Shown here in pieces: positions 4,616 to 59,369 of a DNA stretch of 64,000 nt. The position numbers and the translations under genes are program-made. Location of the stretch: IMG/VR virus record IMGVR_UViG_2565956892_000004. One strand, 5' to 3'. Source of the stretch: a virus. Each line of letters starts with the position of its first letter. Position 1 is the first letter of the stretch. Below the pieces are notes generated by a model that saw only the letters and a list, made by a program, of their open reading frames with translations, was not told the origin of the DNA and searched no databases.

Positions 4616-4651
4616 AGTAAGTCAGTCCTGACTGATTTTTTTGATTGATTT

Positions 4652-7600
4652 TTACTGGTTTGTTGAACGCAACATACCGCCTGGTCGTTTTTGCTTCACG
4701 ATCTCTTCCTGAACTAATGACTTGACTCTGTTAGACAAGTCTTTCCAGTTGGATTCGTTGTCTCCGCCTTTTGAGCTTTCTGTTGTTGTATCTCCATTGT
4801 TGTTGACTTCAATGTTGATGCTTACAACCGTGCCCCCACCAACTGGCGCGCCTCCGTTTAGAGCAACCCCTAAACGTCCTGAAGAATCACGTTGCAATGG
4901 CATGACCGCTTCTGGCCCAGCTTCTCCCATTACGCCGTTTGCAAATCCGCCACCTTTGGCAAACTTGAAGTAGGTTGGTGAATCGTAAATCCCATTGGTA
5001 AATGCCCCGCCGTTAGCAAAAGCATGTGTACCAGCGCCAAAAGCGCCACCGTTAGCAAAGAAAGAGGAAGCGATAGATGCAGCCGCACCAATCCAGCCAC
5101 CAGCACCTCCCATACCTCCGCCAGCTCCACCGCCACCGCTAAACAAACCACTAATGGCACTTGCTAGGCTGCTAAAAATTCCACCACCGCCAGCGCCTCC
5201 ACCGAACAAGCTGCTAAATGCACTGCCGATAGAACTCATTAAGCCACTGCCGTTGCTGAATAAATTAGAGAAGCCCGACTTGATTGTTGAGAAGATGCCG
5301 CCACCCGCTCCCTGTCCGAAGATGTCCATGAAGCCAGATTTGATCTGCGCAAACAGACCACCAAGCACTCCACCTTCTGCGCCTTCTAGCGAACCCCCAA
5401 CGCTTTTATCCATCAATCCGCCGTTGAGGAAGCTAGGTAAGTTAGGGTCCATACCGGCACCACCTTCAAACCCGCCGGCTAGATGGTCAAGGAAGCCACC
5501 AGAACCATTGACATAATCAATAGCCCCAACATTTTCAGGCCCTAGTACTGCGCTTGCGAAGGTTGTTAGGTCTTCACCACCAACTGATGATGCAACACCA
5601 CCAATGACACTAGAAATGCTTTGGCCACGGAGTGCTGCTGTGAGGTTTTGAATTGCTGCGGTGTTGGCATTTACCGCGATTGTGTTAGAAGCCTCCGCCG
5701 AGTCTGCTGAAGAGTCACTTGACGCCACCCCAGTCAAACCACGGATTTTGTTTAGCCACTTTCCAACAAATCCACTTTCATCAACGGCCTCGCCTTTGAG
5801 TAAGGATTTGCCCATTGAGTAAAGGTCGGTATTAGCGCCATCACCAAGCGCGCGTTTAGACATGTCTTGCCACACGTAGCGGAAAGCGCCTTGTGAAATT
5901 TTAGATGCGCTCTCAGACAAGATGCCGCTTAGGGAGACGTCATCGCCTTTCAGGAACTTATTAAAAATGCCATCCGACATTTCAACGCCAAGATCTGAAA
6001 TGGTTTGACGATATGTGGTTTCGTAATCCCGCCATTTGATCATTGCCTGATCATAGGTGGACATTAGCTCACGGCGGCGCTTTTCCTCTTGAATGCGGTA
6101 AAACTCTGAAAACTCTTCTTCAAAGTCTTTGCGTGTCTGCAATAACTTCGCATACAAGTCCTCTTGTTCTTGAGTGCGTTGCTGTACGGCGTCTAAAGAG
6201 GCGATCTGCTCGTCAAGTTGAGATTGAATCAACTTGTATGGCTTGATCAGGTCGTCATACTTTTTATTTACCGCTTGTTGGTTTCGCGCGTATTCATTGT
6301 CGACAAATACAGATGAATCTTCGGAGTTTGAGTTTTTCGCCTTTTTCGCGTAACCCAAATAATCTGAAGCTGTTTGCATTGCGATAGATGCATTTTTATT
6401 TGAAACGTAATTAGGGTCGCCGTATGCGAACGGATTCTTCGCTTCAAATCGCGCAAATTCACGACGTAATGCAGCCAAAGCATCACTTTGATTGTCTATG
6501 TCATTTGTTGCATCTTCGAGTGAGTCTTTGAAGTTCTCATTTGCATTTGCTGATTTAGAAACCGCAAATTGAACCGACTTATGCATGTCTTCAAGCTGAC
6601 GAACTTGAGCCATGTTTTTGAGAATCTGCTCAACTGAAATACCTGTTTTTGGATCTACGGCGTTCCAGTCAATATCCTCTTGCTTCCATACGCGCCCTTT
6701 TTGGTAGCTGCGGTTAGCAAATGGGCGATTCTTAGGGTTTCTGCCATCGTCAAAGTTGCCTTGCATCCACTCTTTGATAAATGAAAGCTTGGCGAGTTTG
6801 TAGTAATCTGGCGCGCCTTTTTCCAAAACTGAATCATCAAGAACATTCAGCTCCGCAATTTTAGCTAACAGACCTTCATTAACCCCCATGACTTTGCTTT
6901 CAAAGTCACGAGTTGAACCACCAGAGCCTCGATCTTTTTTAGGCTTGGTAGCAAGCGTTGGAGAGCTAATATCGTGATTACCAGTTCCCGGCATGAAGCC
7001 AGCTGGGGTAGCTGAAGTGTGGTTGTCTTTGTCAGTAGTTGCAGATGTTTTCTTCTGTTCGTCCGAAGTTAAGCCATAGTTCTTTTTGACATGCCCCATC
7101 GCTTTGTCGTATTGAACCTTAACTTCATAAGGCATACGTGGGGCTTTGACGTCAGTATGGCCATAACGAGCCCCAGATTGGCTGTACTCGTAAGCGTTAG
7201 CCCAGTTCTTGACGCTATCGGTAACTTTAACTCCCTTAACCGTATCGCCAACTTTTGCACCTTTAAGCAAATTCGCGTAACGCTTGGTTACTTCGGTTGA
7301 GATGTTATTAACCTTTTCTTGCTTTTCGCCTTCCGTAACTACATGAAGACGCTCTTGCTGCTCCTTAATCTGACGGCGCGTTTCTTGAATTTCAGCGCGG
7401 GCCTGTAATTGCTCACCTGTAAAGAACTCTTTAAAGGATAGCCAAGCGCCTTTAAGAGAGTTGATCATCAAATCCCAATTGGACACGATGTCATTGACAA
7501 TATTTTGGATGTGGGTGTTAATTTCTGTTCCGCCCACTTTGAGCGAGCCGATCCACTTACCAATCGCCCAACCAAATTGCCCCGCCAAGATGAGCCAACC

Positions 7601-9166
7601 AGCCCAATTGACCACAGAACCCAATAGGCGAAGTGCGCCCCCAGCAAATACCTTAACTGAACCCAAGTGGCCAGATAGCTTGCCTGCAAATCCTTTTACG
7701 CCTGCATTGGCGCGTTCTGCGGATTTTTCAGCTGTTGTGCCGAAGGATGTAAATTCAGATGCGGCTTTTCCGACAGTATCTTTGGTTGCGTTGATTGAGG
7801 TTTTGGCCGCCCCTGATGCCGTCCCTAAGTTTTTCATTGAAGAAACAATGTTCCCCAAAGATTTAGGCATCAACCCCAACACACCCAATAACATTCGAAT
7901 AGGCGAGAGCGTTGCCATAATAGTAACTTTGAGCAGGCCAAACCCTACCGTCATCAAAGAAAGCGTGGCTAGAGTTGGATTGTCCTTACCAAATTCACTG
8001 AATGAGCGAATGATGCTTGCAAAGAACTTAGGAACTTCGGCTAACTTAGCAAGAAGAGGCTCAAAGGTGACAGCAAAATCAGCCAAAGAAGCTTTTAGAA
8101 TGTCCATGTTGGCATTCCAGTTCTCGGTTAGATTTTGCATCGCCTCAAGTTCGCCTTGAGATCCCATTGCTGTTTCAGCTGCGTGGTTTGAACGCTCCAC
8201 AAAACTGCGGTTCATGGTCAACAACATACCGTCAATGGTTTTGTTGGACATGCCCGACTGTGCAAAGAAACGCTTAAATGCTGCGTTTTCAATGTCATCT
8301 TGTGTGCGCTGATCTACCAGCTGACCATTTGCACCGATCATTCGCCCTTCGGCGTTGTAGCTATGCTTAGGCGTATTTGCACCAAAGAACTTCTTGAACT
8401 GTGCGTCTTGCATCATGTAATCGAGCAATTGACCACGCAATCCAGCAAAGAACTTGATAGGGTCCTTCGACATTTCCTTGACGTCTTTGAAGCCAGCTGT
8501 TTTCACAGCTTTCATCATTGCGCCTTGAATTTCTCGCGAGTTCTGGAATTGTTGCGACGTACCATCGGCGAATGCGTCGTTCATAACGTCCGCACCAAGC
8601 AAATTGAGAGCCGCCGTGTTGGTTATTGGCTTGCCTGATGCATAAAGGCTCATCATTTTAAAGATGGTACCAACTGAGGAAACGCCACCACCGCCACCGT
8701 TTCCGCCGCCAGCTGTCTTAAACTGCTCCATTACTGCGGCGAGTCTAATCCACCCTTCAGAAGACATGGTTTGGCGCAAATCACCAATATTACGGGCCAC
8801 CGTCTCAATGTCGGCCATCTTGATTTTGCCGCCTGAAGCAACGGCCATTCTGCGGGCAATATCAAATGACTTATTGACTTCGTTAGGGTCATCCATCACC
8901 TGCCTTGCTTCGGCAAAACCATATAGATTTTTTACGACGTCTGAATGTGTGCCGTTTTCATAACCCAAAGAACGCAAAAGATATGCATTTCGAGAAGCGC
9001 TCGATATGGTTTTGTCGATCGTTGGCTCTTTGTTGTAGCCAATTGCCGTCAGAGCATCGAGACGGGTTTGCATTGCTGCGGTTCTGGATAAGTATTTTTC
9101 AGTACTTGCCAAATCCCATGACTTCTCCTTGAAGCGATTAAACTCTTCAGGAGATAAGTTAAGCAT
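4652..9166 (-). CDS. Tail tape measure protein (C-terminal 1504 codons of a longer open frame)
   Basis: 1504 aa. Coiled-coil N-terminal half. C-terminal Gly/Phe-rich tandem repeats (GGIFS.., GGAF..). Sits between the G/T chaperones and gpM-like gene. No convincing RBS at the 9166 ATG. The frame is open upstream to a TAG at 9422-9424. Confidence 0.85.
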   Translation of the reverse strand: MLNLSPEEFNRFKEKSWDLASTEKYLSRTAAMQTRLDALTAIGYNKEPTIDKTISSASRNAYLLRSLGYENGTHSDVVKNLYGFAEARQVMDDPNEVNKSFDIARRMAVASGGKIKMADIETVARNIGDLRQTMSSEGWIRLAAVMEQFKTAGGGNGGGGGVSSVGTIFKMMSLYASGKPITNTAALNLLGADVMNDAFADGTSQQFQNSREIQGAMMKAVKTAGFKDVKEMSKDPIKFFAGLRGQLLDYMMQDAQFKKFFGANTPKHSYNAEGRMIGANGQLVDQRTQDDIENAAFKRFFAQSGMSNKTIDGMLLTMNRSFVERSNHAAETAMGSQGELEAMQNLTENWNANMDILKASLADFAVTFEPLLAKLAEVPKFFASIIRSFSEFGKDNPTLATLSLMTVGFGLLKVTIMATLSPIRMLLGVLGLMPKSLGNIVSSMKNLGTASGAAKTSINATKDTVGKAASEFTSFGTTAEKSAERANAGVKGFAGKLSGHLGSVKVFAGGALRLLGSVVNWAGWLILAGQFGWAIGKWIGSLKVGGTEINTHIQNIVNDIVSNWDLMINSLKGAWLSFKEFFTGEQLQARAEIQETRRQIKEQQERLHVVTEGEKQEKVNNISTEVTKRYANLLKGAKVGDTVKGVKVTDSVKNWANAYEYSQSGARYGHTDVKAPRMPYEVKVQYDKAMGHVKKNYGLTSDEQKKTSATTDKDNHTSATPAGFMPGTGNHDISSPTLATKPKKDRGSGGSTRDFESKVMGVNEGLLAKIAELNVLDDSVLEKGAPDYYKLAKLSFIKEWMQGNFDDGRNPKNRPFANRSYQKGRVWKQEDIDWNAVDPKTGISVEQILKNMAQVRQLEDMHKSVQFAVSKSANANENFKDSLEDATNDIDNQSDALAALRREFARFEAKNPFAYGDPNYVSNKNASIAMQTASDYLGYAKKAKNSNSEDSSVFVDNEYARNQQAVNKKYDDLIKPYKLIQSQLDEQIASLDAVQQRTQEQEDLYAKLLQTRKDFEEEFSEFYRIQEEKRRRELMSTYDQAMIKWRDYETTYRQTISDLGVEMSDGIFNKFLKGDDVSLSGILSESASKISQGAFRYVWQDMSKRALGDGANTDLYSMGKSLLKGEAVDESGFVGKWLNKIRGLTGVASSDSSADSAEASNTIAVNANTAAIQNLTAALRGQSISSVIGGVASSVGGEDLTTFASAVLGPENVGAIDYVNGSGGFLDHLAGGFEGGAGMDPNLPSFLNGGLMDKSVGGSLEGAEGGVLGGLFAQIKSGFMDIFGQGAGGGIFSTIKSGFSNLFSNGSGLMSSIGSAFSSLFGGGAGGGGIFSSLASAISGLFSGGGGAGGGMGGAGGWIGAAASIASSFFANGGAFGAGTHAFANGGAFTNGIYDSPTYFKFAKGGGFANGVMGEAGPEAVMPLQRDSSGRLGVALNGGAPVGGGTVVSINIEVNNNGDTTTESSKGGDNESNWKDLSNRVKSLVQEEIVKQKRPGGMLRSTNQ

Positions 9167-9421
9167 GCGAACGCGATCTTCGACATCTTGATAACTCGCC
9201 GCTTCATGTACACCCGCAACGGTTGCCGCGCCAGCTCCAACAGCAGTTACCGCTGCGGCCGCTTCGGCATTCGCGCGGTTGATTTCAGCAGCTTCGCGGC
9301 GTCGACGCGCTAGTTCCGCTTGGTGGTTACGCTCCTTTAAGCGTTCAAGCCGATTTAAATCGCGCTCTTCTGCTTTGATCTTTAATTCAGCCGCTCTTTG
9401 TTCCTGTTTGGAGTTGGCGAT

Positions 9422-10396
9422 CTATTGTTTTGATTCACGATCTTTAAGGGCGGCCAATCCACGTTCGGCCTTTTCGACGTCCTTAATAGCACGAATGCGT
9501 TCGCGCTCTGTATCATTGCGTTTTTTGGCTAAGTCATTTTGTTCTTTTAAAACATCACGCTCTTGGCGTTCCAGACGCAAGCCATCATCAGTGATTTTGA
9601 TTGCGTTTTTAAGCTCTTTGTTCCGCTCCCGCAACATGGAAACAGACTGTTCAATTGCGAGCTTGGTTTGGCGAAGGGTTGTTAATTGCTCTTCCGCAGC
9701 GTTTGCTTTGCCGGAATGGTTTTTATATGCCGCTAAACCGCGCTCAGTTGTCGCTGTGGCGAATTTATTAGCTTGGCTAGTGGCATTGCGCTTAACAGTC
9801 TCTAACTTGCGCTCTAGGGCTTCGTATTGCTTATAAAGCTGCTCGCGAGATTTTAAGGACTGTTGGTTTGCCTGCTCTTCCTCAGCGAGAATGCGGCGAC
9901 GCTCAAGCCAACGTGTTTTTTCCTTTTCCGCCCCTTCGCCAGCATGTTTGATGCGAGACTTGCCTAGTCGCTCTTCGGTTTTACGAACGCGATCAAGTAC
10001 GGGGTTTAGACCATCAATGGTATTGCCGTAATGGTCGGTGAGTTCTTTAAGGGAAGTGATGGCGCTTTTTTGCTGAGTAGCCGCACCTGTCAGCTTTTCA
10101 AGCTTGCGCGAAAGCAAGTCGACGTTCTTGGTAGTTTCGCCAACTTTCTTTTGAGCATCAGTAAATGTTTTGCTTGTGGTGCCTAGTGTTTTTTCAGCAT
10201 CGCTAAAACGACGATTAAGCTCGACCATCCCCTGCTTTGTATCAGCAAGTTTTGAATCGAGCTTAGTTGACTGTTTACCGAGGTTGTCTAATTCCTTCTC
10301 AAGCGCGATTGCCTTTTTGGTGGCTTGCTCAATTGCGGAATCAAATTGCGATGCATCTAACGTGAGGCTGTTTTTAACTTCGCCGCCGCCGATCAT
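9422..10396 (-). CDS. Coiled-coil protein, probable N-terminal segment of tape measure separated by an in-frame TAG
   Basis: Good SD (TAAGGATGG) and ATG at 10394-10396 directly after the gpT-like stop. 324 aa, charged coiled-coil. Same reading frame as 4652..9166 with one TAG between them. Confidence 0.55.
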   Translation of the reverse strand: MIGGGEVKNSLTLDASQFDSAIEQATKKAIALEKELDNLGKQSTKLDSKLADTKQGMVELNRRFSDAEKTLGTTSKTFTDAQKKVGETTKNVDLLSRKLEKLTGAATQQKSAITSLKELTDHYGNTIDGLNPVLDRVRKTEERLGKSRIKHAGEGAEKEKTRWLERRRILAEEEQANQQSLKSREQLYKQYEALERKLETVKRNATSQANKFATATTERGLAAYKNHSGKANAAEEQLTTLRQTKLAIEQSVSMLRERNKELKNAIKITDDGLRLERQERDVLKEQNDLAKKRNDTERERIRAIKDVEKAERGLAALKDRESKQ

Positions 10397-10412
10397 GTGT
10401 GTTTAACCATCC

Positions 10413-10757
10413 TTATGTCATATTTCGGAGCGCTTCGAATCCAGCTTCGTCTCTTTCGGTGTTTAAAATTGGGTTGTTATCTCCCTTGATTACTTCGCCA
10501 ACTTCCTTTCTAAGAGACTCCATTAGGTTCTCAATGCCCTCTTGAGTTGCGCCCATGCTTCCTGCCAGCGCAATTTTTAAGTGTCGGAGATCTCTTTGAG
10601 CCTCGATCCGTTCAACACTGTTGCTAAGCAACCAAAATGTTTTGATTGGCATAGCGAGTAGAGATTGATAGGTTTCTGAGTAAAAATGCATTACGCGACA
10701 AAACAGGAATCCAAAATCTAAAGATTCAAGCTTTGGCGCAGAGGCACTTACTTTCCC
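10413..10757 (-). CDS. gpT-like extension of tail assembly chaperone, reached by -1 frameshift from the gpG-like ORF (G-T fusion product 11071->10413)
   Basis: -1 frame is open from the GGGAAAG slip site (10751-10757) to the stop at 10413-10415. No independent start or RBS for the 92-aa ORF. Confidence 0.65.
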   Translation of the reverse strand, partial: GKVSASAPKLESLDFGFLFCRVMHFYSETYQSLLAMPIKTFWLLSNSVERIEAQRDLRHLKIALAGSMGATQEGIENLMESLRKEVGEVIKGDNNPILNTERDEAGFEALRNMT

Positions 10758-11071
10758 TCTTTGTCTGCCGCCTCATCAGCCTCTTCAGAGTCATTGTCTT
10801 GTCCGCTAACAAACGCAACAATTGCTTGAAGTTGAGGAAGTTGAAGCTTTTCGATTTCCTCAACAGGAACGTCTGGAAGGGCAGAGCTAACAACTTTGAT
10901 GGCAAATTCAAGTTCACGAAGAGGGTCACGCGAAGCTGCAATTTCACGAGCATCTTTGACGAATTGAGTAAATTCCCCAACGCTCATGATTTTGAGTTCA
11001 TGTTTTTTGCCAGCGATTTCGATAAATCGATCACTTTTAACTGAGATGTTTTCAATGTTTAATAATTTCAT
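10748..11071 (-). CDS. Tail assembly chaperone, lambda gpG-like
   Basis: 107 aa. Acidic C-terminus. Ends GAG GGA AAG TAA, i.e. lambda-type slippery heptamer just before the stop. Position between tube and tape measure. Confidence 0.7.
   Translation of the reverse strand: MKLLNIENISVKSDRFIEIAGKKHELKIMSVGEFTQFVKDAREIAASRDPLRELEFAIKVVSSALPDVPVEEIEKLQLPQLQAIVAFVSGQDNDSEEADEAADKEGK
10751..10757 (-). other. Programmed -1 ribosomal frameshift slippery heptamer G GGA AAG (X XXY YYZ)
   Basis: Read directly on the minus strand. It is the same heptamer as the lambda G/T site. The downstream -1 frame is open into the gpT-like ORF. Confidence 0.7.
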
Positions 11072-11159
11072 TTTTGCGCGTCTCGAATCTGAGAAAGCCC
11101 TGCGAATGACAGGGCTGTTAGGAGGTTGTTAAATCAGTCAGTAATGACTGATTTATAAA

Positions 11160-11687
11160 TTAAGCCTTACCAGCTGCCGGATCACCAATAGAGAACAGTT
11201 TGCCGTTCTCGTCTGGATACGCGTTGAACTCAGTGTTAAACAAACGCTCATCTTCCAGCTTGTAGCCGAAATCCAATGCGCCAGCAGTTGCCGCACGTTT
11301 AACAACAAAGTCGTCAGATTTGTCGGTATCAGGCTTGCCAATTGGGTGCAATACCAATTCTTTTGCGAAGTCGAGCAAGTTGATACCAACGCCAGTAGGA
11401 ACATCTACGCGTTTTTTAGCAGGGGTTTGAGCGTCAGTAACCAAAGTGGCACCAGGCATGATTTTTACCAAGTTTTCCAAAGTGGTTTCTGCGAGAGGGG
11501 CTTTTACAACTACGGTACGACCGAGAATGTATTCATTGATTGGTGTTTGGCCAAACTGGTCAACTTGAACCTTGTGGGTTTCAGTTGAGACAGTTACGTC
11601 AACGCCGCCTTTTGTAAAACCTAAGTCCACTCCATCGAACATGATTTTACAAACACCAAGCTTGACGTTTTTAACATCGCTTGCCAT
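11160..11687 (-). CDS. Major tail (tube) protein, lambda gpV-like
   Basis: Start placed at the ATG 6 nt after AAGGAG (11695-11700 complement); the ORF-track start at 11720 lies inside the palindromic element. Position immediately upstream of the G/T chaperones. Confidence 0.6.
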   Translation of the reverse strand: MASDVKNVKLGVCKIMFDGVDLGFTKGGVDVTVSTETHKVQVDQFGQTPINEYILGRTVVVKAPLAETTLENLVKIMPGATLVTDAQTPAKKRVDVPTGVGINLLDFAKELVLHPIGKPDTDKSDDFVVKRAATAGALDFGYKLEDERLFNTEFNAYPDENGKLFSIGDPAAGKA

Positions 11688-11756
11688 TGTCATCTCCTTT
11701 GCAAAGGCATATTCAGTCATCCATGACTGATTTTTGGCAATCTATCATAGAGGGGG

Positions 11757-12257
11757 TTATTTGTCCAGTTTCTTGATTTCTCTAAGAACTTGTGCGCGAA
11801 TATCCTTCTGAATCTCTTTGGCGTGGTACATGAGCGCTCTATCCATGAAGCGCCCGCCGGCATGAACTCCATTTGCTAATCCCGCCGCCACTGATCGTTC
11901 CGAAGGCATGATTGACATGCGCACATTTCCCCAGCCCATGTGTTCGTGTATTAACCAAGCATATTCCCCCACAAAAGCTTCTTTTTTACCGCCGCTTGTA
12001 GGTTGGGACATGTTGACATACACCTCCCATCTGGATTGCCCTCGACTAAATTGCCCCAATTTATTTGTACCACCGCCAATTCGACGCACCTTAATTGAAC
12101 GTCGAAGGTCGCCCTCGTCAATTGGTGTCATATTGATGGCGGTTTCTTTTACCTTGTAGGCACAGTCACGCAAGGTTGTTGCAGCTACTTTTTCGGGCAC
12201 TTCTGAAAGAGCTTCCAGTCTTGCTCGCAGTCTTCCAAAATTTCCCTTTTTGAACAT
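11757..12257 (-). CDS. Tail terminator/completion protein (gpU-like by position)
   Basis: 166 aa ORF immediately upstream of the tube gene. Synteny only. Confidence 0.4.
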   Translation of the reverse strand: MFKKGNFGRLRARLEALSEVPEKVAATTLRDCAYKVKETAINMTPIDEGDLRRSIKVRRIGGGTNKLGQFSRGQSRWEVYVNMSQPTSGGKKEAFVGEYAWLIHEHMGWGNVRMSIMPSERSVAAGLANGVHAGGRFMDRALMYHAKEIQKDIRAQVLREIKKLDK

Positions 12258-12677
12258 TTACTCTCCTTTAATTTCATAGCCACAAACGCTGTATTCTGCG
12301 GCGAGTTCAATTAAGTTCCCCGCAGACATTGGGTATGCGTTAGGTCGTGTTTTTGGTCGACAATAGTTGAAGTGGAAGTCTCCGACAGTTGTGTCATTGA
12401 GTGTGAGAACTTCACTCACCCTTTGCATCCTTTGCTCAGCCAGATCAAAGGAAGTATCTCGGACAATGACTACGAATCCTGTTTTGAAATATCCGGGAAG
12501 CTCGTAATCGATTTCCGTTCCGGGTAAATCATTTCTCAACAACACGCCTTTTGGGGCGGAAATTGGAATCATGTTGACAAAGATGGTCTGCCCCGTAATG
12601 CCAACCTGTTTAGTCTGAAGCAGCTTAGCTAGTGGTAGTAGATTCATTGTCGCTCCAATAACTGCAACCAACTTCAA
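12258..12677 (-). CDS. Head-tail joining/tail completion protein (by position)
   Basis: 139 aa ORF in the head-tail connector block. The real start may be the internal Met (overlaps the upstream gene by 53 nt). Confidence 0.35.
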   Translation of the reverse strand: MKLVAVIGATMNLLPLAKLLQTKQVGITGQTIFVNMIPISAPKGVLLRNDLPGTEIDYELPGYFKTGFVVIVRDTSFDLAEQRMQRVSEVLTLNDTTVGDFHFNYCRPKTRPNAYPMSAGNLIELAAEYSVCGYEIKGE

Positions 12678-14723: not shown

Positions 14724-14788
14724 CTGACTTCCTTGTCTTAGTAGATTTTTGAATGATAAGTTATTGGTGATCTTGCATCAATTGAAAC

Positions 14789-51455: not shown

Positions 51456-51544
51456 TAACTCCTTTTGATTCTGAGTGTTTGCGCTTCAACTTCTTTATTG
51501 AAGCTCTGTTAAATTGGGGTCTCAATGACCTCAGATTGATTCGC

Positions 51545-52228
51545 CTACTGGCGTGTTTCAGTGGCAAACTCAATCCCATTCATGGAATCAGGCTTGCTTG
51601 AAACTGTTTCCTTTGCATCCAATTTGGCAATTAGCGAAATCCGTGCTTTGTGCCAGCATGAATGACAAAGAGAAATACGTTTATTAAGATCAAGGACGTC
51701 GCGTTTGAGATACCAATGCGGCACTCGTAAACGACCATCCATAAACAGGCCCAAAACAATCGTGTTTAGCTTTTCAATGAAAGCTTTACAGCACTTGGCT
51801 GAGCCTTCTTTTTTGACCAAAGGAATACCCGGCTGAACAAGCATTACCCCCGTGAAATATTTGTTTTGGACTTCAAAGCATTTGTTCAAATACGCTTCCA
51901 AGCGCTGAGACTGTTCATCGCTTAAACCGTCTGTCACGGCAGCGAGGGTGTACATCATCAGGTCAATAGGCGTGCGATCTGTAATGACTGGTTCGAGTTT
52001 GCTCTCGCCCATGAAGTGTTCAACGTATAAATCCTCAAGGCGGGCAATCATATGCTCTTGGATCTTCATTCGATCATCGAATGAGTAGGTCTGATTCGAT
52101 GAATCAAACCCAATCTCACGTTGCCATCCTGTGATGTCACTTTTCAGAAAAATAGCACCGTGCTTTTCCGCGTATGCTTGAGCAAGCGCTGTCTTACCAG
52201 TACGGTGACTTCCACAAAGACCAAACAT
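51545..52228 (-). CDS. P-loop nucleotide kinase (possible dNMP kinase)
   Basis: Walker A LCGSHRTGKT at the extreme N-terminus. Context with dut/thyX/nrdAB. Start overlaps the dut stop. Confidence 0.4.
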   Translation of the reverse strand: MFGLCGSHRTGKTALAQAYAEKHGAIFLKSDITGWQREIGFDSSNQTYSFDDRMKIQEHMIARLEDLYVEHFMGESKLEPVITDRTPIDLMMYTLAAVTDGLSDEQSQRLEAYLNKCFEVQNKYFTGVMLVQPGIPLVKKEGSAKCCKAFIEKLNTIVLGLFMDGRLRVPHWYLKRDVLDLNKRISLCHSCWHKARISLIAKLDAKETVSSKPDSMNGIEFATETRQ

Positions 52229-52686
52229 TATTCTGTACCTGTGCTTCCGAAGCCGCCTTCACCGCGTTCAGTTGATGAATCAAATTCATCTACAACAGTC
52301 ATCGCTAGTTGGAATGTTGGCAAAACAACATATTGAGCAATGCGTTCACCCGGCTTTAATACAAATGGCTTGTCGCCGTTGTTGCGGAGACACGCTTTAA
52401 TTTCACCTTGATAGTCGCTATCAATAACGCCAGTGCCATTCGCTAAAACAATTCCATGTTTAACGCCTAGCCCTGAACGTGGGTACAGCATGCCCACCAA
52501 GTTTTTGTTTTTTAGGTGAATGGCGATGCCAGTTGATACGAGTAATTGTTCTCCCGGATTCAACGTTACTTCAGCGTCAAGGCATGCACGTAGATCCAAA
52601 CCCGCAGAGCCTTGAGTGGCATATACAGGCGCACCAAACTCACTTAATAAGCGGTCATCTAAAATTTTTACTTCCACTGGAACCAT
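52228..52686 (-). CDS. dut: dUTP diphosphatase
   Basis: GSAGLDLRA motif and overall trimeric-dUTPase motif order. 152 aa. Confidence 0.8.
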   Translation of the reverse strand: MVPVEVKILDDRLLSEFGAPVYATQGSAGLDLRACLDAEVTLNPGEQLLVSTGIAIHLKNKNLVGMLYPRSGLGVKHGIVLANGTGVIDSDYQGEIKACLRNNGDKPFVLKPGERIAQYVVLPTFQLAMTVVDEFDSSTERGEGGFGSTGTE

Positions 52687-52979
52687 CAGTTAATTTCCTT
52701 CTTTACATCTTCAATGGTTAAATTTTGAGGCGCTGTGATTAGCTTGCTTAAAGCTGCGCCAACAGTACGAGCGCGAGCAGCTTCGGCATTTGCTTCATCT
52801 TGTTTGAATAAGATTTTTGCTGCTTCTTCGCCGTGATTGTTTGCTTCGCGAAGTTTTTGTTCTTCCAAAGCGCTTAGTTCTTCAACTTGCTTGGTGATAT
52901 TTCCAATAATCAAGTCGACCGATTTCTGTGGCTGTGGGCTTGACTCATTTGAGCCGAATAACCATTTCCAAAAGCTCAT
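52686..52979 (-). CDS. Hypothetical protein (97 aa)
   Basis: ORF between dut and thyX with overlapping stop/start codons. Confidence 0.4.
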   Translation of the reverse strand: MSFWKWLFGSNESSPQPQKSVDLIIGNITKQVEELSALEEQKLREANNHGEEAAKILFKQDEANAEAARARTVGAALSKLITAPQNLTIEDVKKEIN

Positions 52980-53836
52980 GCTGCTTCCTTAAATTGAAGT
53001 TCGATTAATTTTCGATGCTGTACAAAGCCATCGAAATTCCCATGTAGATGTTTGTTTTGCCATTCGCCTTTGAACAACTTCACTAACCACGGATTGCGAA
53101 TATCTGGTGTGGCTTGGTGTTCAAATGGAGAGGCATGTAGCGGCTCAGAACCCACTAGCTTTTCGCAAAGGCGAATATCCTTTTGGATGTCTGGCGCTTT
53201 ACCGTCATGCCGCAAGTAGGACACACGACAACAACGAGCCGCCGACACTTGCAACAAAATGTCGGTTGGATACTTTTCGCGTTCTTCATCCAGAATGTAC
53301 GGAAGGTGCCACTCATTAGGGGCCAATAAGACAGGTATTGATTTTTCTAGCGCAGCCTTCATTAATGCAGTTAAGGCAAAAATGGTTGGGTCCGCATCTT
53401 CGTGATGGCGTAGCTCAAAAAAGTTATCGAAGCTTGTCGCTGTTAAAACCACTTCAATAAATTGGAAAGGTTCTAAAATGCGATTAACAACTTGTTTGTG
53501 CAGACCAAGATCGTCAGCCATGAAACGTGCGGTATTTACTGCATTTTTAGCAGCTTCCAACCATGCTTCACGCGCAAGCTCCTTTTTGTACTCATTCACC
53601 TCTTCCCAAGCTTGCATACCAGCTTGGTTTTTACCCCAATGAACAGGCATTGCCGGATTTGCTTCAACTTGGTTAATCAACTTGATAACAGGGATGGCAC
53701 GCGAGCTTGAAGCATTGCGACTAAATACGCGGTGGGTCATCACTTCACTGTGAATAAAGCGCGGATAACGCAGCTGAAAGGTAGTAATTCGCTTACCTTC
53801 ATGGCTGCAAGAATCCGCAATAATTTTGACTTGCAT
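52976..53836 (-). CDS. thyX: Flavin-dependent thymidylate synthase
   Basis: ThyX signature THRVFSRNASSSR (RHR-x7-S-like). 286 aa. Confidence 0.7.
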   Translation of the reverse strand: MQVKIIADSCSHEGKRITTFQLRYPRFIHSEVMTHRVFSRNASSSRAIPVIKLINQVEANPAMPVHWGKNQAGMQAWEEVNEYKKELAREAWLEAAKNAVNTARFMADDLGLHKQVVNRILEPFQFIEVVLTATSFDNFFELRHHEDADPTIFALTALMKAALEKSIPVLLAPNEWHLPYILDEEREKYPTDILLQVSAARCCRVSYLRHDGKAPDIQKDIRLCEKLVGSEPLHASPFEHQATPDIRNPWLVKLFKGEWQNKHLHGNFDGFVQHRKLIELQFKEAA

Positions 53837-53900
53837 TGTTGGGTAACACTCACTTTTTAAAAAGAGGTGACTAATGCCACCCCTCGTTCTCTGAGCGTTA

Positions 53901-53923
53901 AAGTATAGTCAGTACTGACTGAT
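53901..53923. promoter_or_regulatory. Copy of the conserved intergenic palindromic element, upstream of thyX
   Basis: Identical 23-mer AAGTATAGTCAGTACTGACTGAT. Followed on the minus strand by a GGGGTG hairpin plus U-tract, then the thyX RBS. Confidence 0.6.
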
Positions 53924-54066
53924 CTTTTGGAGTTTATTTTCAGCAAAATAGGCTTATTTTTAGCCAGTTGTTTTATGTTTACGAATAAACAGTTAAAATG
54001 AACCATGACATTCGATCGACGCAATGAATTGACATTGGATCGACGTTTGTTAAAGAGGTTAATTAC

Positions 54067-54429
54067 ATGAAAAGATTTAGCGAGTTTTTAGCTGAGCGTA
54101 AAAACAAATCTAAAAGCGAAAGAATTTTAGAGCTTCAAAGAGTTTTTAAATCAACTCCTGAAGTTAGCGAAGAAGAGAAGGAACGCTTAGTTAAAAGATA
54201 TTTGTCACAACACGCCAGCATTAAAGAGGCGGTTGAAGTTATGACGTCTTTAAAGCTTTCTCAGGAGTATGCGAAGGTTATGGATGAAATTCATAACGAT
54301 GTGTTGGCTCGCGCGGCTGTAGCAATGGAGTTAAATGCATCTCCTGCTTCTGAGCGTTTGGTGCGCGGAGTTGCTCGCAGTGTTATTCGTGATCATCACG
54401 AGGAACTCGAACGTCTGGCTTATAAGTAA
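54067..54429 (+). CDS. Hypothetical protein upstream of the Doc-like gene; candidate antitoxin-like partner (120 aa)
   Basis: Stop overlaps the Doc-like start by 1 nt. No similarity to Phd noticed. Upstream region has GATCGACG direct repeats flanking a TTGACA. Confidence 0.45.
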   Translation: MKRFSEFLAERKNKSKSERILELQRVFKSTPEVSEEEKERLVKRYLSQHASIKEAVEVMTSLKLSQEYAKVMDEIHNDVLARAAVAMELNASPASERLVRGVARSVIRDHHEELERLAYK

Positions 54430-54848
54430 TGTATGATCCAGCGCCATTAATTAACGCAACGCTTGTTGAAGCGATTCATAGCGAGATTTTAGACAGCGTA
54501 GAAGGAGGCATGAGAGGTCCAACTAATTATGGTCTTCTCGAAAGTGCTTTAAATAGAGTTCAGCAGTATGTTTATTATGACGGTTTGAATGACATTTATG
54601 AGATTGCGGCATGGTATGGGATTTCTATTTCCACTCAACATGCATTCTCAGACGGCAATAAGCGAACTGGATTAACCGTAATGTTGACTTACCTTCGTAT
54701 GCAAGGCGTCTATATCGAGCCTAATCAAGATCTTGATGACATGATGGTTGATATTGTGCAAAGCGCACAATCAACAGAAGATGGAAATCATAAAGAGATT
54801 GCTGAGGCTTTAGCTGAGTATCTCTATCAGTATGTTCATCAGTTATAG
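54429..54848 (+). CDS. Doc/Fic-family protein (Doc toxin-like)
   Basis: Doc-type Fic motif QHAFSDGNKRTGL (HxFx(D/N)GNKR). N-terminal GG.RG...GLLESALNRVQ segment typical of Fic/Doc. Confidence 0.7.
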   Translation: MYDPAPLINATLVEAIHSEILDSVEGGMRGPTNYGLLESALNRVQQYVYYDGLNDIYEIAAWYGISISTQHAFSDGNKRTGLTVMLTYLRMQGVYIEPNQDLDDMMVDIVQSAQSTEDGNHKEIAEALAEYLYQYVHQL

Positions 54849-54871
54849 AAAAGGCGCATTAAGCGCCTTTT
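54849..54871. terminator. Bidirectional intrinsic terminator (AAAAGGCGC-ATTA-GCGCCTTTT)
   Basis: Perfect 9-bp stem flanked by A-tract and T-tract, between the convergent Doc-like and nrdB genes. Confidence 0.7.
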
Positions 54872-54874
54872 CTT

Positions 54875-55867
54875 TTACCATGCTAACGCACCGCCAGTTT
54901 TGTAGTCTGTTACGCGTGTTTCAAAGAAATTCTTTTCGGCTGTATTAGGCTTAGAGAACTCTTCTACCCACGGAAACGGATTTACCACACCAGGATAAGG
55001 CACAAATGGCGCTCGAATTTGAGCGGCGCGTTTATTAGCTAAATATTTAATATACAGTTCAATCGCTTCTGGATTGGTAACGCCTTGATGAATATATTGA
55101 CCCCAACTAATTTCCATTTTGGTAGATTCATCAATGATTTTAGCCGCATCTTCCCAAAATGAAGAAGTAAACACTTCAGGATTTTCAATACGCAATGTTT
55201 CAATCATGTTCAAGAACAGATCAAGATGCGTTCCTTCTTCATCACGTTGAATATAGCGAATCATATCCGCAGAACCCAACATCTTACCTTTGAAAGCAAG
55301 TAGATAAAATCCTAAGAATCCTGAGAAGAAATACTCGCCCTCAAGCATGACGTTAGAAATGCAAGCAAGGGCAAAACCACGCGCTGAGAACTGATCTCCC
55401 AAGATGCGTGATTGACGCAAAATAAACTCGTTTTTCTTCGCCAAAATACCATCGCGTTCAAATGTCATATAGACACTCATTGGGTCCGCTGAGACCGTTT
55501 CGATGAGTTTGGCATAAGACTCTACATGGTTGGCTTCCTCCCAAGCTTGACGGGACAAACATATGGCAACTTCCGGTGAGGTCACATGTTTTGCAATATT
55601 TTGGTTGATATTGTGAAATTGAATGCCGTCAAGGTTCGATAAAAACGCAAGGCTCTTGTCATACAATCGACGTTCCGCTTCGGTAAGCTTGTCTCGATAG
55701 CAAATGCCTTCATTACTCAAGTCGACCACTTCGGGGAACCAATTGTTATCCTTCATGCGTTGATGAATGTCTCTGGCCCATGTGTGTTTCATCGGGCTGA
55801 TCGCCATAAGGTCATCCTTTGGCCCTAAAATTAAGCGTCGATCATTAATTCGGTTTGCGTATGTCAT
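54875..55867 (-). CDS. nrdB: Ribonucleotide reductase class I small (beta) subunit
   Basis: Di-iron ligand motifs EEANHVESY, LEGEYFFSGF and RDEEGTHLD. FLSNLDG tyrosyl-radical region. Confidence 0.8.
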   Translation of the reverse strand: MTYANRINDRRLILGPKDDLMAISPMKHTWARDIHQRMKDNNWFPEVVDLSNEGICYRDKLTEAERRLYDKSLAFLSNLDGIQFHNINQNIAKHVTSPEVAICLSRQAWEEANHVESYAKLIETVSADPMSVYMTFERDGILAKKNEFILRQSRILGDQFSARGFALACISNVMLEGEYFFSGFLGFYLLAFKGKMLGSADMIRYIQRDEEGTHLDLFLNMIETLRIENPEVFTSSFWEDAAKIIDESTKMEISWGQYIHQGVTNPEAIELYIKYLANKRAAQIRAPFVPYPGVVNPFPWVEEFSKPNTAEKNFFETRVTDYKTGGALAW

Positions 55868-55946
55868 TTCTTTATTCCATGAAAGAGGGGCGTTAAAAAC
55901 ACCCCTGCATAATAAGTCAGTAGTGACTGACTATATTAACCTAAAA

Positions 55947-58337
55947 TTATTGGCAACTTTCGCAATCAGGCTCGAAAATCGAACACAATTTGGCTTGTTG
56001 GTGAGCTTCTGCATCACTCAATGTCGCCCCTTGAGCCACTGCTGATTTCAATGCTTCAATGACGTCATCTTTTGCCGATGCTGAATCTTTGGTAGCTGAT
56101 TGGCCACGTAGGTAGTAAGTGGTCTTCAAACCCTTGCGGTGAGCTTCGGTGTAAATGAGGTCTAAGTCTCTACCAGTTGTTCCTTGCTTAGCGAACAAGT
56201 TAGTTGATTGAGACTGACAGATCCATTTTTGTCGAACAGCTGCGGCTTTAATAATCCATAGCTGATCAACATAGAACGCCTCTTTAAGTAAGTGATAGTT
56301 TGTTCCAACATGACGCACCGATGGGTCAATCACTTTGTACACGCCACCTAAGTTCGTTTTATAGAACTGAAGCAGGAATGGCACTTCTGTGCATTGGGTT
56401 GTACCGGCAATGTTTGAGATCGTTGCCGTTGGTGCAATTGCCATGATGTTTGAGTTGCGCATGCCTTTCTTGACTTTCTCGCGCAAGGCTTCCCAATCGA
56501 AACGACGTGGGCGATCAAAGAAAGGCTTGCCATCTTCCATCTTCTTAGCAGTGTCAATTGGCAAGATGCCTTGTGACCACTTAGAACCTTCAAATGAAGG
56601 ATATGACCCAAGCTCTTGCGCTAGATCTGCTGAGGCTTCAATTGCAAAGTAAGAAATTGCCTCAAACAATGCGTCTGCTTGTTCAAGATGTTGATCACTT
56701 TCAAAATCTACACCTTGTTTTACTAGCCACTCGTAATAACCCATTACACCTAAACCAATTGGGCGGTGACGAAGGTTAGAGAGTTTGGCGCGTTCTGATG
56801 GGTAGTAGTTTACGTCAATCACCGAGTCGAGATTTCGGATGGCCAAACGAACTGCTGTACGCAATTTTTCTAATGGATTATCGCCCGACATTACAACGGC
56901 TAGGTTGATTGAGCCAAGATTACAAACAGCTGTTTCTTCTTTAGATGTATTTAGCGTGATTTCGGTACACAAGTTACTGTGGTGAATTACCCCCACATGC
57001 GACTGAGGGTTACGGCGGTTACTCTCGTCTTTGAATGTAATCCACGGGTGGCCCGTTTCAAACAAGTTAGAAAGAATATGACGCCACACTTTAATTGCAG
57101 GCAATTGGAACTCAAATTCACCAAGCGCTTCAAGCTCTTCATAACGGGCTTCAAATTCTTCGCCATACAACTCATGAAGCTCAGGGAATTTATGCGGAGA
57201 GAAGAACGACCACATTGCTTCCGGGTCTTCTTTGCGTTTCATTAACAAATCAGGAACCCAAGCGGCAGGGAATACATCATGCGCACGAAGTCGGTCATCA
57301 CCAGCTTCCTTCTTGAGTTCACAGAAGGACATGAAATCAGGATGCCAAGATTCAAGATAAGGCGCCACAGAACCTTTACGTTTACCGCCTTGATTTACCG
57401 CGACAGCTGTATTGTTTTGAACTTTGATGTAAGGCACAACACCGCTAGAGATACCATTTGTACCAATGATGATTTCATTTTCACCACGCACAGGTGTCCA
57501 ATCTGTGCCGATACCACCAGCAAACTTAGACAATAAAGCTGTTTCTTCAATGGCTCCAAAGATTGAAGCATAACGACTGTCACCAAGTTCGGCTGTGATC
57601 GTGTCTGATACTTGGTTTAAGTAACAGCTAGACAACTGAGGGCGTAATGTACCGGCATTGAAAAGCGTTGGTGTTGAAGAGATATAGTTCAAAGTTGAAT
57701 ACATTTCATAGTATTCAAGAGCGCGCGCCGTGCGGTTTTCAGGCTTTTCTTTAATTGCGACACCCATTGCTACACGCATCCAGAAATGTTGCGGCAATTC
57801 GATAATTTCACCTGAAGTTTTACCAGTCGCTTTTTCGTACTTAACATCGCGATTTTTGCGAATAAAGTAACGGTCTTTTAGAGTATCTAGTCCTAAATAA
57901 CCAAACAGCAAATCACGCTCTGGCTTGATTGCGGCATTAATTCTATCTAGGTCGTAGCTTTGCAATAAAGCAGGGTCGAGAAGGTTGCAAGAAACACCCC
58001 CCTGAATGTAATCCTTAATGTGAGGATATTTAAAACCACCACCATCGACCTTTCCTTGCTCGCCGCATACAAGTTTGTATAAATCTAAGAGCAATAAGCG
58101 AGCCGCTACAAATGAAGCATCTGTCATGGTTGCAGAAGTTAGTTTAGATGCTGCGCTAATTAAAGCTTCTTGAATGTCGCTTGTTTTAATACCGTCATAG
58201 ATAAGCATAATTGCATTATCAATAACTAATTGAGGTGGCACGTTTGTGTTTTTTGTGGCCCAAATTACCGCTTTCTCAATTTTTTCTTGAGAAAAAGGCT
58301 CCGTAGAGCCGTTGCGTTTGGTTACACGGTTGGTCAT
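55947..58337 (-). CDS. nrdA: Ribonucleotide reductase class Ia large (alpha) subunit
   Basis: N-terminal ATP-cone (VTKRNGSTEPFSQEKI). Active-site AVCNLGSINL and SNLCTEI. C-terminal CESCQ redox pair. 796 aa. Confidence 0.85.
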   Translation of the reverse strand: MTNRVTKRNGSTEPFSQEKIEKAVIWATKNTNVPPQLVIDNAIMLIYDGIKTSDIQEALISAASKLTSATMTDASFVAARLLLLDLYKLVCGEQGKVDGGGFKYPHIKDYIQGGVSCNLLDPALLQSYDLDRINAAIKPERDLLFGYLGLDTLKDRYFIRKNRDVKYEKATGKTSGEIIELPQHFWMRVAMGVAIKEKPENRTARALEYYEMYSTLNYISSTPTLFNAGTLRPQLSSCYLNQVSDTITAELGDSRYASIFGAIEETALLSKFAGGIGTDWTPVRGENEIIIGTNGISSGVVPYIKVQNNTAVAVNQGGKRKGSVAPYLESWHPDFMSFCELKKEAGDDRLRAHDVFPAAWVPDLLMKRKEDPEAMWSFFSPHKFPELHELYGEEFEARYEELEALGEFEFQLPAIKVWRHILSNLFETGHPWITFKDESNRRNPQSHVGVIHHSNLCTEITLNTSKEETAVCNLGSINLAVVMSGDNPLEKLRTAVRLAIRNLDSVIDVNYYPSERAKLSNLRHRPIGLGVMGYYEWLVKQGVDFESDQHLEQADALFEAISYFAIEASADLAQELGSYPSFEGSKWSQGILPIDTAKKMEDGKPFFDRPRRFDWEALREKVKKGMRNSNIMAIAPTATISNIAGTTQCTEVPFLLQFYKTNLGGVYKVIDPSVRHVGTNYHLLKEAFYVDQLWIIKAAAVRQKWICQSQSTNLFAKQGTTGRDLDLIYTEAHRKGLKTTYYLRGQSATKDSASAKDDVIEALKSAVAQGATLSDAEAHQQAKLCSIFEPDCESCQ

Positions 58338-58382
58338 TTTGTTTCCTTGTTGCGTTACGTTGTGTGGCTTTCGCCACGAGAA

Positions 58383-58703
58383 TTACCAAACAAATGCTTT
58401 TGTTCGGGGTTTATCTGAAGCAAGCGGAGCAGCCTTTTCAGGTTCGATTTCGTCGACGCCGATCACCACTGCTGCTTTTCCGTCTTTGACAATGTTTGAG
58501 AACAGTGATTTCGCCCAAGCATTCGCCATAGGGTCTATAGAGTCCCATTCATCCATGTAAATCGCCTTTGATGACGGCTTGGCGGGTGTAGAGGTCACCC
58601 ATACGTCTTTACCTTGTCTTGCTAAGTCCTTTGTGAGCTGATCTATAAGCTTTTGATTGAAGGCAAACCTTCCCATGCTGCGAGGTCTGTGAAGAATCAC
58701 CAT
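58383..58703 (-). CDS. Hypothetical protein (106 aa)
   Basis: ORF downstream of nrdA. No CxxC, so not a glutaredoxin. Confidence 0.35.
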   Translation of the reverse strand: MVILHRPRSMGRFAFNQKLIDQLTKDLARQGKDVWVTSTPAKPSSKAIYMDEWDSIDPMANAWAKSLFSNIVKDGKAAVVIGVDEIEPEKAAPLASDKPRTKAFVW

Positions 58704-59302
58704 GCCACCCCACCAGTTCGAGGGGTATCTTTTGTGATGCCCACTGATTCATCTGAGGCTTCTTCAAGCTCTTTTTCTAGCTCTTCAGGTGTTTTCTTTG
58801 GCGTTATGGGTGGAACGATAATTGAGTCACGTTCAAAATAGCCATCCCATGATTCAGCTTTTTTATTCCGCAACGAGTCATAATCAACTCGACTTACCAA
58901 CGAAGAAATTGCACTTGCGCTTGCTTTGACTGAAAGGTCTGCCGCACTTACTCTCGATGTGAGATTTGATAAGCTGTTTGTTAGCTCGTTTGCGCCTAAT
59001 GGAGCAGGGCAGATAACTGGTCGAAAAATCGTTTGCGAATCACATCTTATCGTTACTCTTAGCTCATCCTCCCAGCTCTTGCGAGTGCGAACAACTTCGC
59101 TTTGAACCTTAAAGCAATGACAATTCAGGCATTGAGAGGAAATGAAGCCTTCGTTTACCGCTATTTTCATAGCCTTACTTTTGGAGTAACTAAGTGCGGC
59201 TTCAATATCTCTTTCGAGGGGGTCTAACCGAACGGTAACACGAGCGGGATTTCCTTCTGCAAAGAGTTTTAGTTTGTCATTGCTCATCTGTTGGTGATCC
59301 AA
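58697..59302 (-). CDS. Hypothetical protein (201 aa, CLNCHC Cys/His cluster)
   Basis: ORF. Confidence 0.4.
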   Translation of the reverse strand: MDHQQMSNDKLKLFAEGNPARVTVRLDPLERDIEAALSYSKSKAMKIAVNEGFISSQCLNCHCFKVQSEVVRTRKSWEDELRVTIRCDSQTIFRPVICPAPLGANELTNSLSNLTSRVSAADLSVKASASAISSLVSRVDYDSLRNKKAESWDGYFERDSIIVPPITPKKTPEELEKELEEASDESVGITKDTPRTGGVAW

Positions 59303-59346
59303 AAACCTAATAAATAAAATATTAAGGCGACAAATCGCCGCCTTAA

Positions 59347-59369
59347 TAGTATAGTCAGTACTGACTGAT
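59347..59369. promoter_or_regulatory. Copy of the conserved intergenic palindromic element, upstream of RuvC-like gene
   Basis: Identical 23-mer AAGTATAGTCAGTACTGACTGAT. Confidence 0.6.

Follow-up and report, generated by a model that had tools for sequence, protein, structure and literature searches.

The DNA analysed here (hereinafter, the window) is a stretch of 64,000 nucleotides of the IMG/VR virus record IMGVR_UViG_2565956892_000004, which is part of a phage-plasmid of approximately 107 kb belonging to the "AB group" of Acinetobacter baumannii. Nearly all genes of the window lie on the minus strand and encode a siphovirus-type structural module, packaging proteins, and proteins of replication and nucleotide metabolism. 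A short near-palindrome with the core AGTCA-N4-TGACT recurs along this gene array. The repeat is a real and strongly selected operator family, and its copies are probably recognized by a single phage-encoded repressor.

The window (1..64000) corresponds to positions 3635..67634 of the plasmid NZ_CP155722.1 with 273 mismatches in total, 265 of which are located in the last 2 kb (62001-64000). In addition, NZ_CP155722.1 contains an operator copy at record position 67441 that is absent from the window. Taken together, these differences indicate that the window derives from a variant diverging after ~63.7 kb. When the region 14000-24000 of the window was compared with plasmids, 27 A. baumannii plasmids of ~105-114 kb matched it at 99% or more, most of them at 100%. 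A megablast search of the window against GenBank phages revealed no close relative; the large terminase subunit (TerL) encoded in the window is ~60% identical to TerL of Salmonella phage SSU5, Pseudomonas phage hairong, and Rhizobium phage RHEph10. The AB-group phage-plasmids comprise two subgroups, from which no phage has been recovered so far, and the paper describing them contains no promoter or operator analysis (PMC7969092).

The copies located in the window are listed below; values such as 10/12 give the number of matches to the sigma-70 promoter consensus.

4620-4633, minus strand: operator copy, AGTCAGGACTGACT on the gene strand, followed by TACTAT; between the stop of the tail gene (4652) and the next gene
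11136-11149, minus strand: operator copy, TCAGTCATTACTGACTGA; a hairpin lies ~25 nt downstream
11715-11728, minus strand: operator copy, TCAGTCATGGATGACTGA, followed by GAATAT; 27 nt ahead of an annotated start
14826-14839, minus strand: operator copy 6 nt past the stop of the major-capsid gene, followed by TACAAT and then by an intrinsic terminator (14819-14796)
15853-15866, minus strand: operator copy ahead of the major-capsid gene, with TGATT as its right arm; its right end is overlapped by TTGATC-17-TAGGAT
18536-18549, minus strand: operator copy between the terminase and portal genes
20493-20506, minus strand: operator copy upstream of the small-terminase gene; its right end runs into a TTGACA -35 box (TTGACA-17-TATCCT, 10/12)
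20954-20967, minus strand: hybrid copy, AGTCA TTAG TTACT or AGTCA-N8-TGACT, upstream of a gene encoding a protein of 131 amino acids (aa)
25178-25191, plus strand: operator copy, the only plus-oriented one in the window, TCAGTCAGTACTGACT, followed by TATACT; 43 nt ahead of the helicase gene (25235)
27791-27804, minus strand: operator copy 10 nt past a gene stop
31626-31639, minus strand: operator copy, AGTAAGCACTGACT on the gene strand, with one mismatch; in the spacer of TTGAAA-17-TACAAT (10/12)
39893-39906, minus strand: degenerate copy of doubtful function within the first codons of the gene 39518..39925
39983-39996, minus strand: operator copy in the spacer of TTGATC-17-TATAAT (10/12)
44098-44111, minus strand: operator copy preceded by an extra half-site (44118-44124), just downstream of CTGATA-17-TACAAT
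46203-46216, minus strand: operator copy within a 23-mer that occurs twice, followed by TATACT; predicted transcription start near 46191
47586-47599, minus strand: operator copy beginning 1 nt past the -10 box of TTCATA-16-TATAAT (10/12), with the palindrome over the predicted start site
53907-53920, minus strand: operator copy ahead of the thymidylate-synthase gene, within the second of the two identical 23-mers; TATACT follows
55915-55928, minus strand: operator copy separating the ribonucleotide-reductase alpha and beta genes, with TATTAT and then a hairpin after it
59353-59366, minus strand: operator copy matching the 23-mer at 22 of 23 positions, followed by TATACT and then by an intrinsic terminator (59348-59320)

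A sequence-only reading of the window had reported the near-palindrome as a genome-wide repeat and listed 17 cores. All of these exist, the first one being shifted to 4620-4633 (the span originally given, 4631-4645, consists of one arm and a T-run), and one copy, at 31626-31639, had been overlooked. A supposed half site at 39900-39908 turned out to belong to the degenerate copy 39893-39906, which has two mismatches to TCAGTCA-N4-TGACT. The 23-mer AAGTATAGTCAGTACTGACTGAT had been counted three times as identical; it is identical at 46197-46219 and 53901-53923, and the third occurrence (59347-59369) is the 22/23 match. A degenerate inverted half-site was additionally found at 47565-47571, near the copy at 47586.

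With no more than one mismatch to the core AGTCA-N4-TGACT, the window contains 18 sites, compared with 2.0 (maximum 6) in Markov-1 simulations. The heptamer TCAGTCA was observed 31 times versus 8.4 ± 2.8 expected; 24 of these heptamers belong to palindromic sites, and the seven isolated ones, which fall within crude open reading frame calls, are about as numerous as expected by chance. A search for TCAGTCA-N4-TGACT with up to two mismatches gave 48 matches (both strands counted) versus 5.1 expected. The whole ~107 kb plasmid contains ~30 copies.

The placement of the copies is equally distinctive. Seventeen of the 18 core sites lie outside annotated coding sequences (binomial p = 7e-13). The earlier statement that every copy is intergenic has one exception, the copy at 25178-25191, which overlaps the initial codons of a ParB-like gene on the minus strand and is directed toward the helicase gene on the plus strand. 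The copies are located 4 to ~104 nt from annotated start codons, in agreement with the 5 to ~110 nt estimated before. In 29 of the 30 plasmid sites the asymmetric flank (A-rich, then TC) is upstream relative to the gene, so that a scan of the whole plasmid bears out an orientation bias following gene direction. The only two plus-oriented copies of the plasmid precede the helicase gene and the gene of the XRE-family regulator described below, the two plus-strand genes that have a copy. Most promoters of the lytic genes of the plasmid (structural, packaging, lysis, replication, and nucleotide metabolism) are accompanied by a copy, which extends to lytic genes of all classes the span over structural and replication/nucleotide modules noted earlier. 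The repB, parA, and integrase genes of the full plasmid are without the motif.

On the gene strand, the consensus of the 30 plasmid copies is an A-rich stretch followed by TC, AGTCA, (G/C)TAC, TGACT, and (G/T/A)A. All but one of the 30 copies carry the TC on the left; the flank on the other side is variable and usually opens a TAnnnT box (TATACT, TACAAT, TATTAT, or TACTAT). Conservation is confined to TC-AGTCA-N4-TGACT and the flanks beyond it vary, which corresponds to a palindrome of 14-18 bp and not to an asymmetric block of 23 bp. Comparison with a relative of 85% nucleotide identity showed 80 of 80 arm positions to be identical, versus 27 of 32 positions in the centre and 357 of 480 in the flanks; this indicates that both half-sites, but not the centre, are under selection. 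The core is therefore composed of two inverted 5-bp half-sites, AGTCA and TGACT, around 4 unconstrained bp.

The distribution of the motif was analyzed in 80 IMG/VR loci around terminase homologues (TerL 57-94% identical to that of the window, GC content 42-67%). The same core is kept at the same junctions, namely upstream of the small terminase gene, after the large terminase gene, before and after the capsid gene, and at others. A de novo palindrome census found nothing comparable in hairong, L055, L058-L065, L071, and L079. Each motif-bearing genome contains either AGTCA-N4-TGACT or AGTAA-N4-TTACT, and a few contain both types. In the commoner A. baumannii lineage, represented by pA1296_1 and pABTJ2-like plasmids (terminase 75% identical), ~27 copies of AGTAA-GCGC-TTACT are located in similar places, the site sequence of pA1296_1 being AGTAAGCGCTTACT, and no copies of the AGTCA type were found in pA1296_1. 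Two related elements of one host species with different site specificity present the pattern of heteroimmune phages, which argues against a host factor as the recognizing protein. The right half, TTACT, of the hybrid copy at 20954-20967 is a half-site of this sister lineage. In RHEph10 (L238), which encodes a ParA-like protein, a third and looser variant, A(A/G)TCA-N4-TGA(C/T)T, was noted at 47650-47680 and other sites; after the terminase gene it again lies in a promoter spacer (TTGACG-17-TACCAT).

Pseudomonas phage hairong (Nickievirus) served as a motif-free control. This virulent phage shares the gene order and has no copies of the motif, and no replication initiator, partition ATPase, integrase, or repressor/XRE gene is annotated in its genome. 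After its terminase gene, hairong keeps TTGCAC-17-TACCAT with a spacer unrelated to the palindrome. The promoter thus persists without the palindrome and does not need it, so that the palindrome appears to be an added control site. One decayed look-alike, TAAGTCAAGCCTGAGCT followed by GTATCAT, is present in hairong (L119) at 33545-33613 and is possibly an operator relic.

The promoter assignments considered here are predicted, being consensus matches only. At the terminase-portal junction, where the window has the copy at 18536, ~18 relatives have TTGnnn 2-4 nt upstream of the palindrome and TAnnnT directly after it (TTGACA, then the palindrome, then TAnnAT). This is the pattern of a sigma-70-type promoter whose spacer of 16-18 bp contains the palindrome, and it is plain in the GC-richer relatives. 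At other places in the relatives, the last T of the palindrome opens a TTGACA box, with the centre near -41.5, or a second copy begins 1-2 nt past the -10 box. The same three registers were found in the window: the spacer register at 31626, 39983, 14826, 46203, and others; overlap with the -35 box at 20493 (TTGACA-17-TATCCT, palindrome centre near -41.5); and the position just after the -10 box at 47586 and at 44098, where the copy and its extra half-site cover the predicted start region. At least 8 of 12 matches to the sigma-70 consensus were obtained for 30% of the sites versus 2.5% of random positions, and three of the six best minus-strand promoter-like matches in the window touch a copy. 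Comparison of forward and reverse promoter scores in the relatives was weakly informative because the extended palindrome has TA on both sides. The variable register over the promoter boxes points to repressor operators, since neither a positioned activator nor a polymerase-specific promoter could work without a fixed register.

As for the protein that could recognize the operators, the best candidate is encoded outside the window. It is the XRE-family helix-turn-helix (HTH) protein WP_001107553.1 (NZ_CP155722.1, 84453..84917, plus strand), whose gene is located between the integrase/parA block and the leftward CobT-MoxR-DnaE operon. Four copies of the palindrome lie within ~0.85 kb just upstream of this gene, one of them in its own promoter. 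Profile searches identified 20 such regulators, all beside the same operon; the syntenic regulator of pA1296_1 is 30% identical and has a different recognition helix. The first, word-based protein search had returned only four homologues and made the protein look, falsely, lineage-specific, whereas a profile of distant members returned 17. Single queries with the regulator or the CobT-like neighbour gave close relatives only, and a sub-alignment of the regulator recovered further ones; the full regulator alignment contains no stretch conserved enough for searching.

Across the 20 elements, position 36 of the XRE protein, at the start of helix 3 (G33-F-K-R36-P-N38), tracks base 4 of the half-site. 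The 15 regulators with Lys or Arg at this position are associated with 161 AGTCA and 9 AGTAA half-sites, the two with Asn or Gln with 0 AGTCA and 39 AGTAA half-sites, and the three with Ser or Thr with 14 half-sites of each type. Between the two AGTAA-type regulators identity is only 30%, and one of them shares 48% identity with an AGTCA-type regulator, which suggests that the change arose twice. The covariation fits the usual contacts of Lys and Arg with guanine and of Asn and Gln with adenine.

In the AlphaFold model of the protein (pLDDT, i.e., predicted local distance difference test, of 79), the N-terminal HTH domain is predicted with confidence and can be superposed on 434 Cro, P22 c2, and DdrO (target-normalised template-modelling score ~0.8), as well as on controller proteins of restriction-modification systems. 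The structure search returned generic XRE matches only, with weak E-values. The regulator has a single XRE HTH and a helical C-terminal part, and no S24 peptidase domain was found. The lack of such a domain fits the description of the plasmid pABTJ2 as non-inducible (PMC4411360); that plasmid was reported not to respond to mitomycin C or ultraviolet treatment and to be without a phage repressor (PMC4411360).

Based on these data, the copies are probably DNA operators of one phage-encoded dimeric XRE master repressor that silences both early and late lytic promoters and defines immunity groups. Of the four readings offered by the sequence-only analysis, the one naming operators of a phage regulator is the one backed by evidence. 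Enrichment, placement, arm conservation, family-wide distribution, the two exclusive specificity classes, and the covariation with one regulator residue were computed directly; from them we infer binding, the dimeric state, and repression rather than activation. In the proposed mechanism, a dimer of WP_001107553.1 would bind each copy and, with the palindrome filling the -35/-10 spacer, overlapping the -35 box, or covering the start site, would block the host RNA polymerase. One protein would thereby silence ~30 promoters at once during plasmid replication and also provide superinfection immunity, and its loss would release early and late genes at the same time. Where a copy stands between a stop codon and a terminator, it may additionally serve as a roadblock.

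Several observations weigh against this interpretation. Most plasmid copies are without a recognisable -35 box, and the sigma-70 scores are 6-8/12 at most sites; such scores without a clear -35 box are also typical of activator-dependent promoters, which leaves activation some weight. At 18536, only ~8 nt separate the -10-like box from the ribosome-binding site, so that almost no leader is left. At 14826, 59353, and 55915 an intrinsic terminator follows within a few nt of the -10-like box, which is odd for a productive promoter. The conservation of TC on the left flank (29 of 30 copies) and not on the right implies that the protein footprint is not simply symmetric. The covariation amounts to few independent changes (two to the A type, three to the mixed type), with small half-site counts at several loci. 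In two relatives the XRE gene is co-directional with the lytic operon. Finally, SSU5 has ~8 looser copies of the motif but no detectable XRE homologue.

The terminator-adjacent copies form a group of their own. An intrinsic terminator within a few nt was also noted after 53907, 46203, and 11136, and the order of operator, -10-like box, and intrinsic terminator after the major-capsid gene is conserved in distant relatives. This order was recorded in the window at 14796-14839, 59320-59366, and 55880-55928, and in six related loci (L004, L014, L021, L041, L069, and L074) near 14900-15100. The start sites predicted from the -10 boxes there (in the window, near 14813 and 59341 on the minus strand) would lie inside the 5' arm of the terminator stem. 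Either transcripts start within that arm and so escape the terminator, or these copies are roadblocks rather than promoters.

The most serious competing explanation is that the promoters are activator-dependent: a phage protein would dock on the palindrome, replace the missing -35 contact, and turn lytic promoters on in the manner of Lpa in phage P1. It is consistent with the A-rich upstream flank standing in place of a -35 box at most plasmid copies, with the fixed position of TAnnnT, beginning at palindrome position 13 or 14, for ~10 of 18 sites, and with a palindrome centre near -19.5, not far from the -22 known in P1. In P1, the late promoters that depend on Lpa have a -10 box and an inverted repeat near -22 in place of the -35 box; they serve late genes only, in a fixed register, whereas copies here precede early replication genes as well as late genes, the register is fixed neither in the family nor in the window (20493, 47586, and 44098), and near-consensus TTGACA is found beside the palindrome in relatives. 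Lpa itself is the late-promoter activator of P1 (PMC8198154). The lytic relative hairong moreover keeps a promoter without the palindrome, and the promoter of the regulator itself has a copy, so that activation of this kind is unlikely. A MerR-type spacer activator was also considered and rejected; its promoters have spacers of 19-20 bp, and the spacers here are 16-18 bp.

It is also rather improbable that another phage protein or a host factor binds the palindrome and that the covariation with the XRE protein is a by-product of shared ancestry. The sequence-only reading had proposed three HTH proteins of the window as binders (21015..21347, 34396..34737, and 42386..42643), none of which is now favoured. 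Some points favour the winged-helix protein (21015..21347, PHROG 900): its gene occurs in SSU5, which has copies but no XRE homologue, and in every motif-bearing relative examined, it is encoded just upstream of the packaging genes, and between the two A. baumannii lineages it has diverged about as far (36% identity) as the XRE protein (30% identity). However, no column of its alignment separates AGTCA from AGTAA lineages, the recognition helix of the AGTAA lineage L019 does not differ from that of AGTCA lineages, and homologues are encoded by hairong and L055, where no copies were found. The sigma-r4-like protein (34396..34737, previously called GcrA-like) is absent from the sister lineage, and the Cro-like protein (42386..42643) shows 72% conservation across lineages whose operators differ. 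As one host species contains two exclusive site types, a host factor is improbable.

An element acting at the RNA level, with the transcribed palindrome forming a hairpin for RNA processing, for the stabilisation of 3' ends, or for boxB-like antitermination in long polycistronic transcripts, is very unlikely. The copies do lie between genes, often a few nt past a stop codon and just upstream of intrinsic terminators, both arms switch together between the AGTCA and AGTAA types with pairing kept, and the plasmid encodes an Hfq-like protein. The hairpins are nevertheless weak (-3.6 to -9.5 kcal/mol, 5-bp stems), and two of six folded palindromes are no better than shuffles (z as poor as -0.9). 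Among hosts whose GC content spans 42-67%, it is the stem whose sequence stays fixed and the loop that varies freely; boxB-type recognition shows the opposite, and no Rfam family matched. The overlap with -35 and -10 boxes and the covariation with a DNA-binding helix would also remain without explanation, and both RNA-based proposals of the sequence-only reading are accordingly weakened, although the palindromes might still act as RNA in read-through transcripts.

T7-like promoters for a phage-encoded RNA polymerase, suggested at first by the many near-identical copies ahead of genes in one orientation and by the two identical 23-mers, can practically be dismissed: no RNA polymerase is annotated in the 107 kb plasmid, as had been observed for the window, or was found among the window proteins scanned, and the element is a palindrome with a free centre, flanked in relatives by host-type -35/-10 boxes to which its position varies.

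The repressor interpretation was further compared with known systems. The features of a dispersed-operator regulon are present here: more than 10 copies, their location on predicted lytic promoters and not on maintenance genes, and, by computation, a regulator that covaries with the sites and has a copy at its own gene. Phage P1, which also lives as a plasmid, encodes the C1 repressor that binds operators scattered over its ~90-110 kb genome and represses nearby promoters (PMC8198154). The likeness lies in a phage-plasmid with one main repressor and dispersed operators. In P1 the operators are asymmetric 17-bp sites to which C1, a protein that is not of the XRE type, binds as a monomer, whereas the element described here is a symmetric 5+4+5 palindrome with an XRE HTH protein as the candidate; the two are likened by design, and homology is not claimed.

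In Cluster A mycobacteriophages (L5 gp71, Bxb1, TipsytheTRex), dozens of repressor sites are found in short intergenic gaps of early and late operons, and the immunity repressor and its stoperators co-evolve into immunity groups (PMC9283540, PMC6550527). Each stoperator is an asymmetric site of 13 bp that a two-domain monomer reads and at which elongation is stopped in one orientation (PMC9283540). The copies resemble them in being intergenic (17 of 18) and in a flank orientation that follows gene direction (29 of 30), and differ in the symmetric 5+4+5 core, the location mostly over promoter boxes, and the single-HTH regulator; a roadblock role is only possible. The c repressor of the temperate Streptomyces phage phiC31 reportedly binds highly conserved inverted repeats spread over many intergenic regions, including its own promoter and places near terminators. 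By description, these repeats differ from the present element in host phylum, 17-bp sequence, repressor family, and promoters, which are not of the sigma-70 type. Controller proteins of restriction-modification systems are, like the candidate, small XRE-type HTH dimers, and the HTH of the XRE model superposes on C.AhdI and C.BclI. Their C-boxes are GACT-N3-AGTC pairs ahead of one operon and contain the same GACT/AGTC tetranucleotides; here the order is AGTCA-N4-TGACT with ~30 repeats, and the resemblance may be due to chance.

The design of one repressor with many operators in a plasmid prophage is thus already familiar, and it is without earlier description for this widespread plasmid family. 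In the searchable literature, no description of the motif strings or of SSU5 promoter repeats was found. A wider scheme is conceivable, with considerable doubt about it as a whole. According to this scheme, the entire AB/SSU5-related family would be run by a single-protein switch with an operator in the spacer of nearly every lytic promoter, and its immunity groups would follow a one-residue code (Lys/Arg for AGTCA, Asn/Gln for AGTAA, Ser/Thr for both). At the operator/-10/terminator order after the capsid gene, the bound protein could also act as a stoperator-like roadblock, and derepressed transcripts, starting in the terminator stem, would escape the terminator. Here as above, repression and immunity through binding are proposed from sequence comparison.

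TerL relatives were detected in more than 1,000 PLSDB plasmid records of clinical Acinetobacter, Klebsiella, Escherichia, Yersinia, and Salmonella. Such phage-plasmids are known carriers of resistance genes (PMC9600943). A named candidate repressor with a map of ~30 operators offers a concrete way into the question of whether AB-group elements are live phages, and the operator/regulator map predicts mutually excluding lineages. The repressor/operator pair is compact, and its specificity may be switchable by one residue.

Several other features of the window and of the reference plasmid were noted. The gene of the 1914-aa tape-measure-like tail protein (4652-10396, minus strand) has an in-frame stop at codon 325 (~9422-9424) that the tail gene of NZ_CP155722.1 lacks; judging from this stop, the copy of the phage-plasmid in the window may be unable to build tails. 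A Doc-type toxin-antitoxin pair (54067-54848, plus strand) lies on the opposite strand amid nucleotide-metabolism genes and is without its own operator copy, and a HicA toxin gene is located just beyond the window end in the reference plasmid. The 179-aa Hfq-like protein is encoded outside the window, at NZ_CP155722.1 95881-96420 (L110 45881-46420), beside a DnaB-like helicase gene; a faint Hfq match was seen at the same place in the relative L250. In addition, a 12-kb block of lower GC content (37-40%) at ~27900-39900 harbours a gene for the anti-restriction protein ArdA and a single operator copy (31626), and 41 terminator-like hairpins versus 19 expected were counted at 20-40 kb of the window. 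The block may be an accessory or establishment region that is separately controlled.

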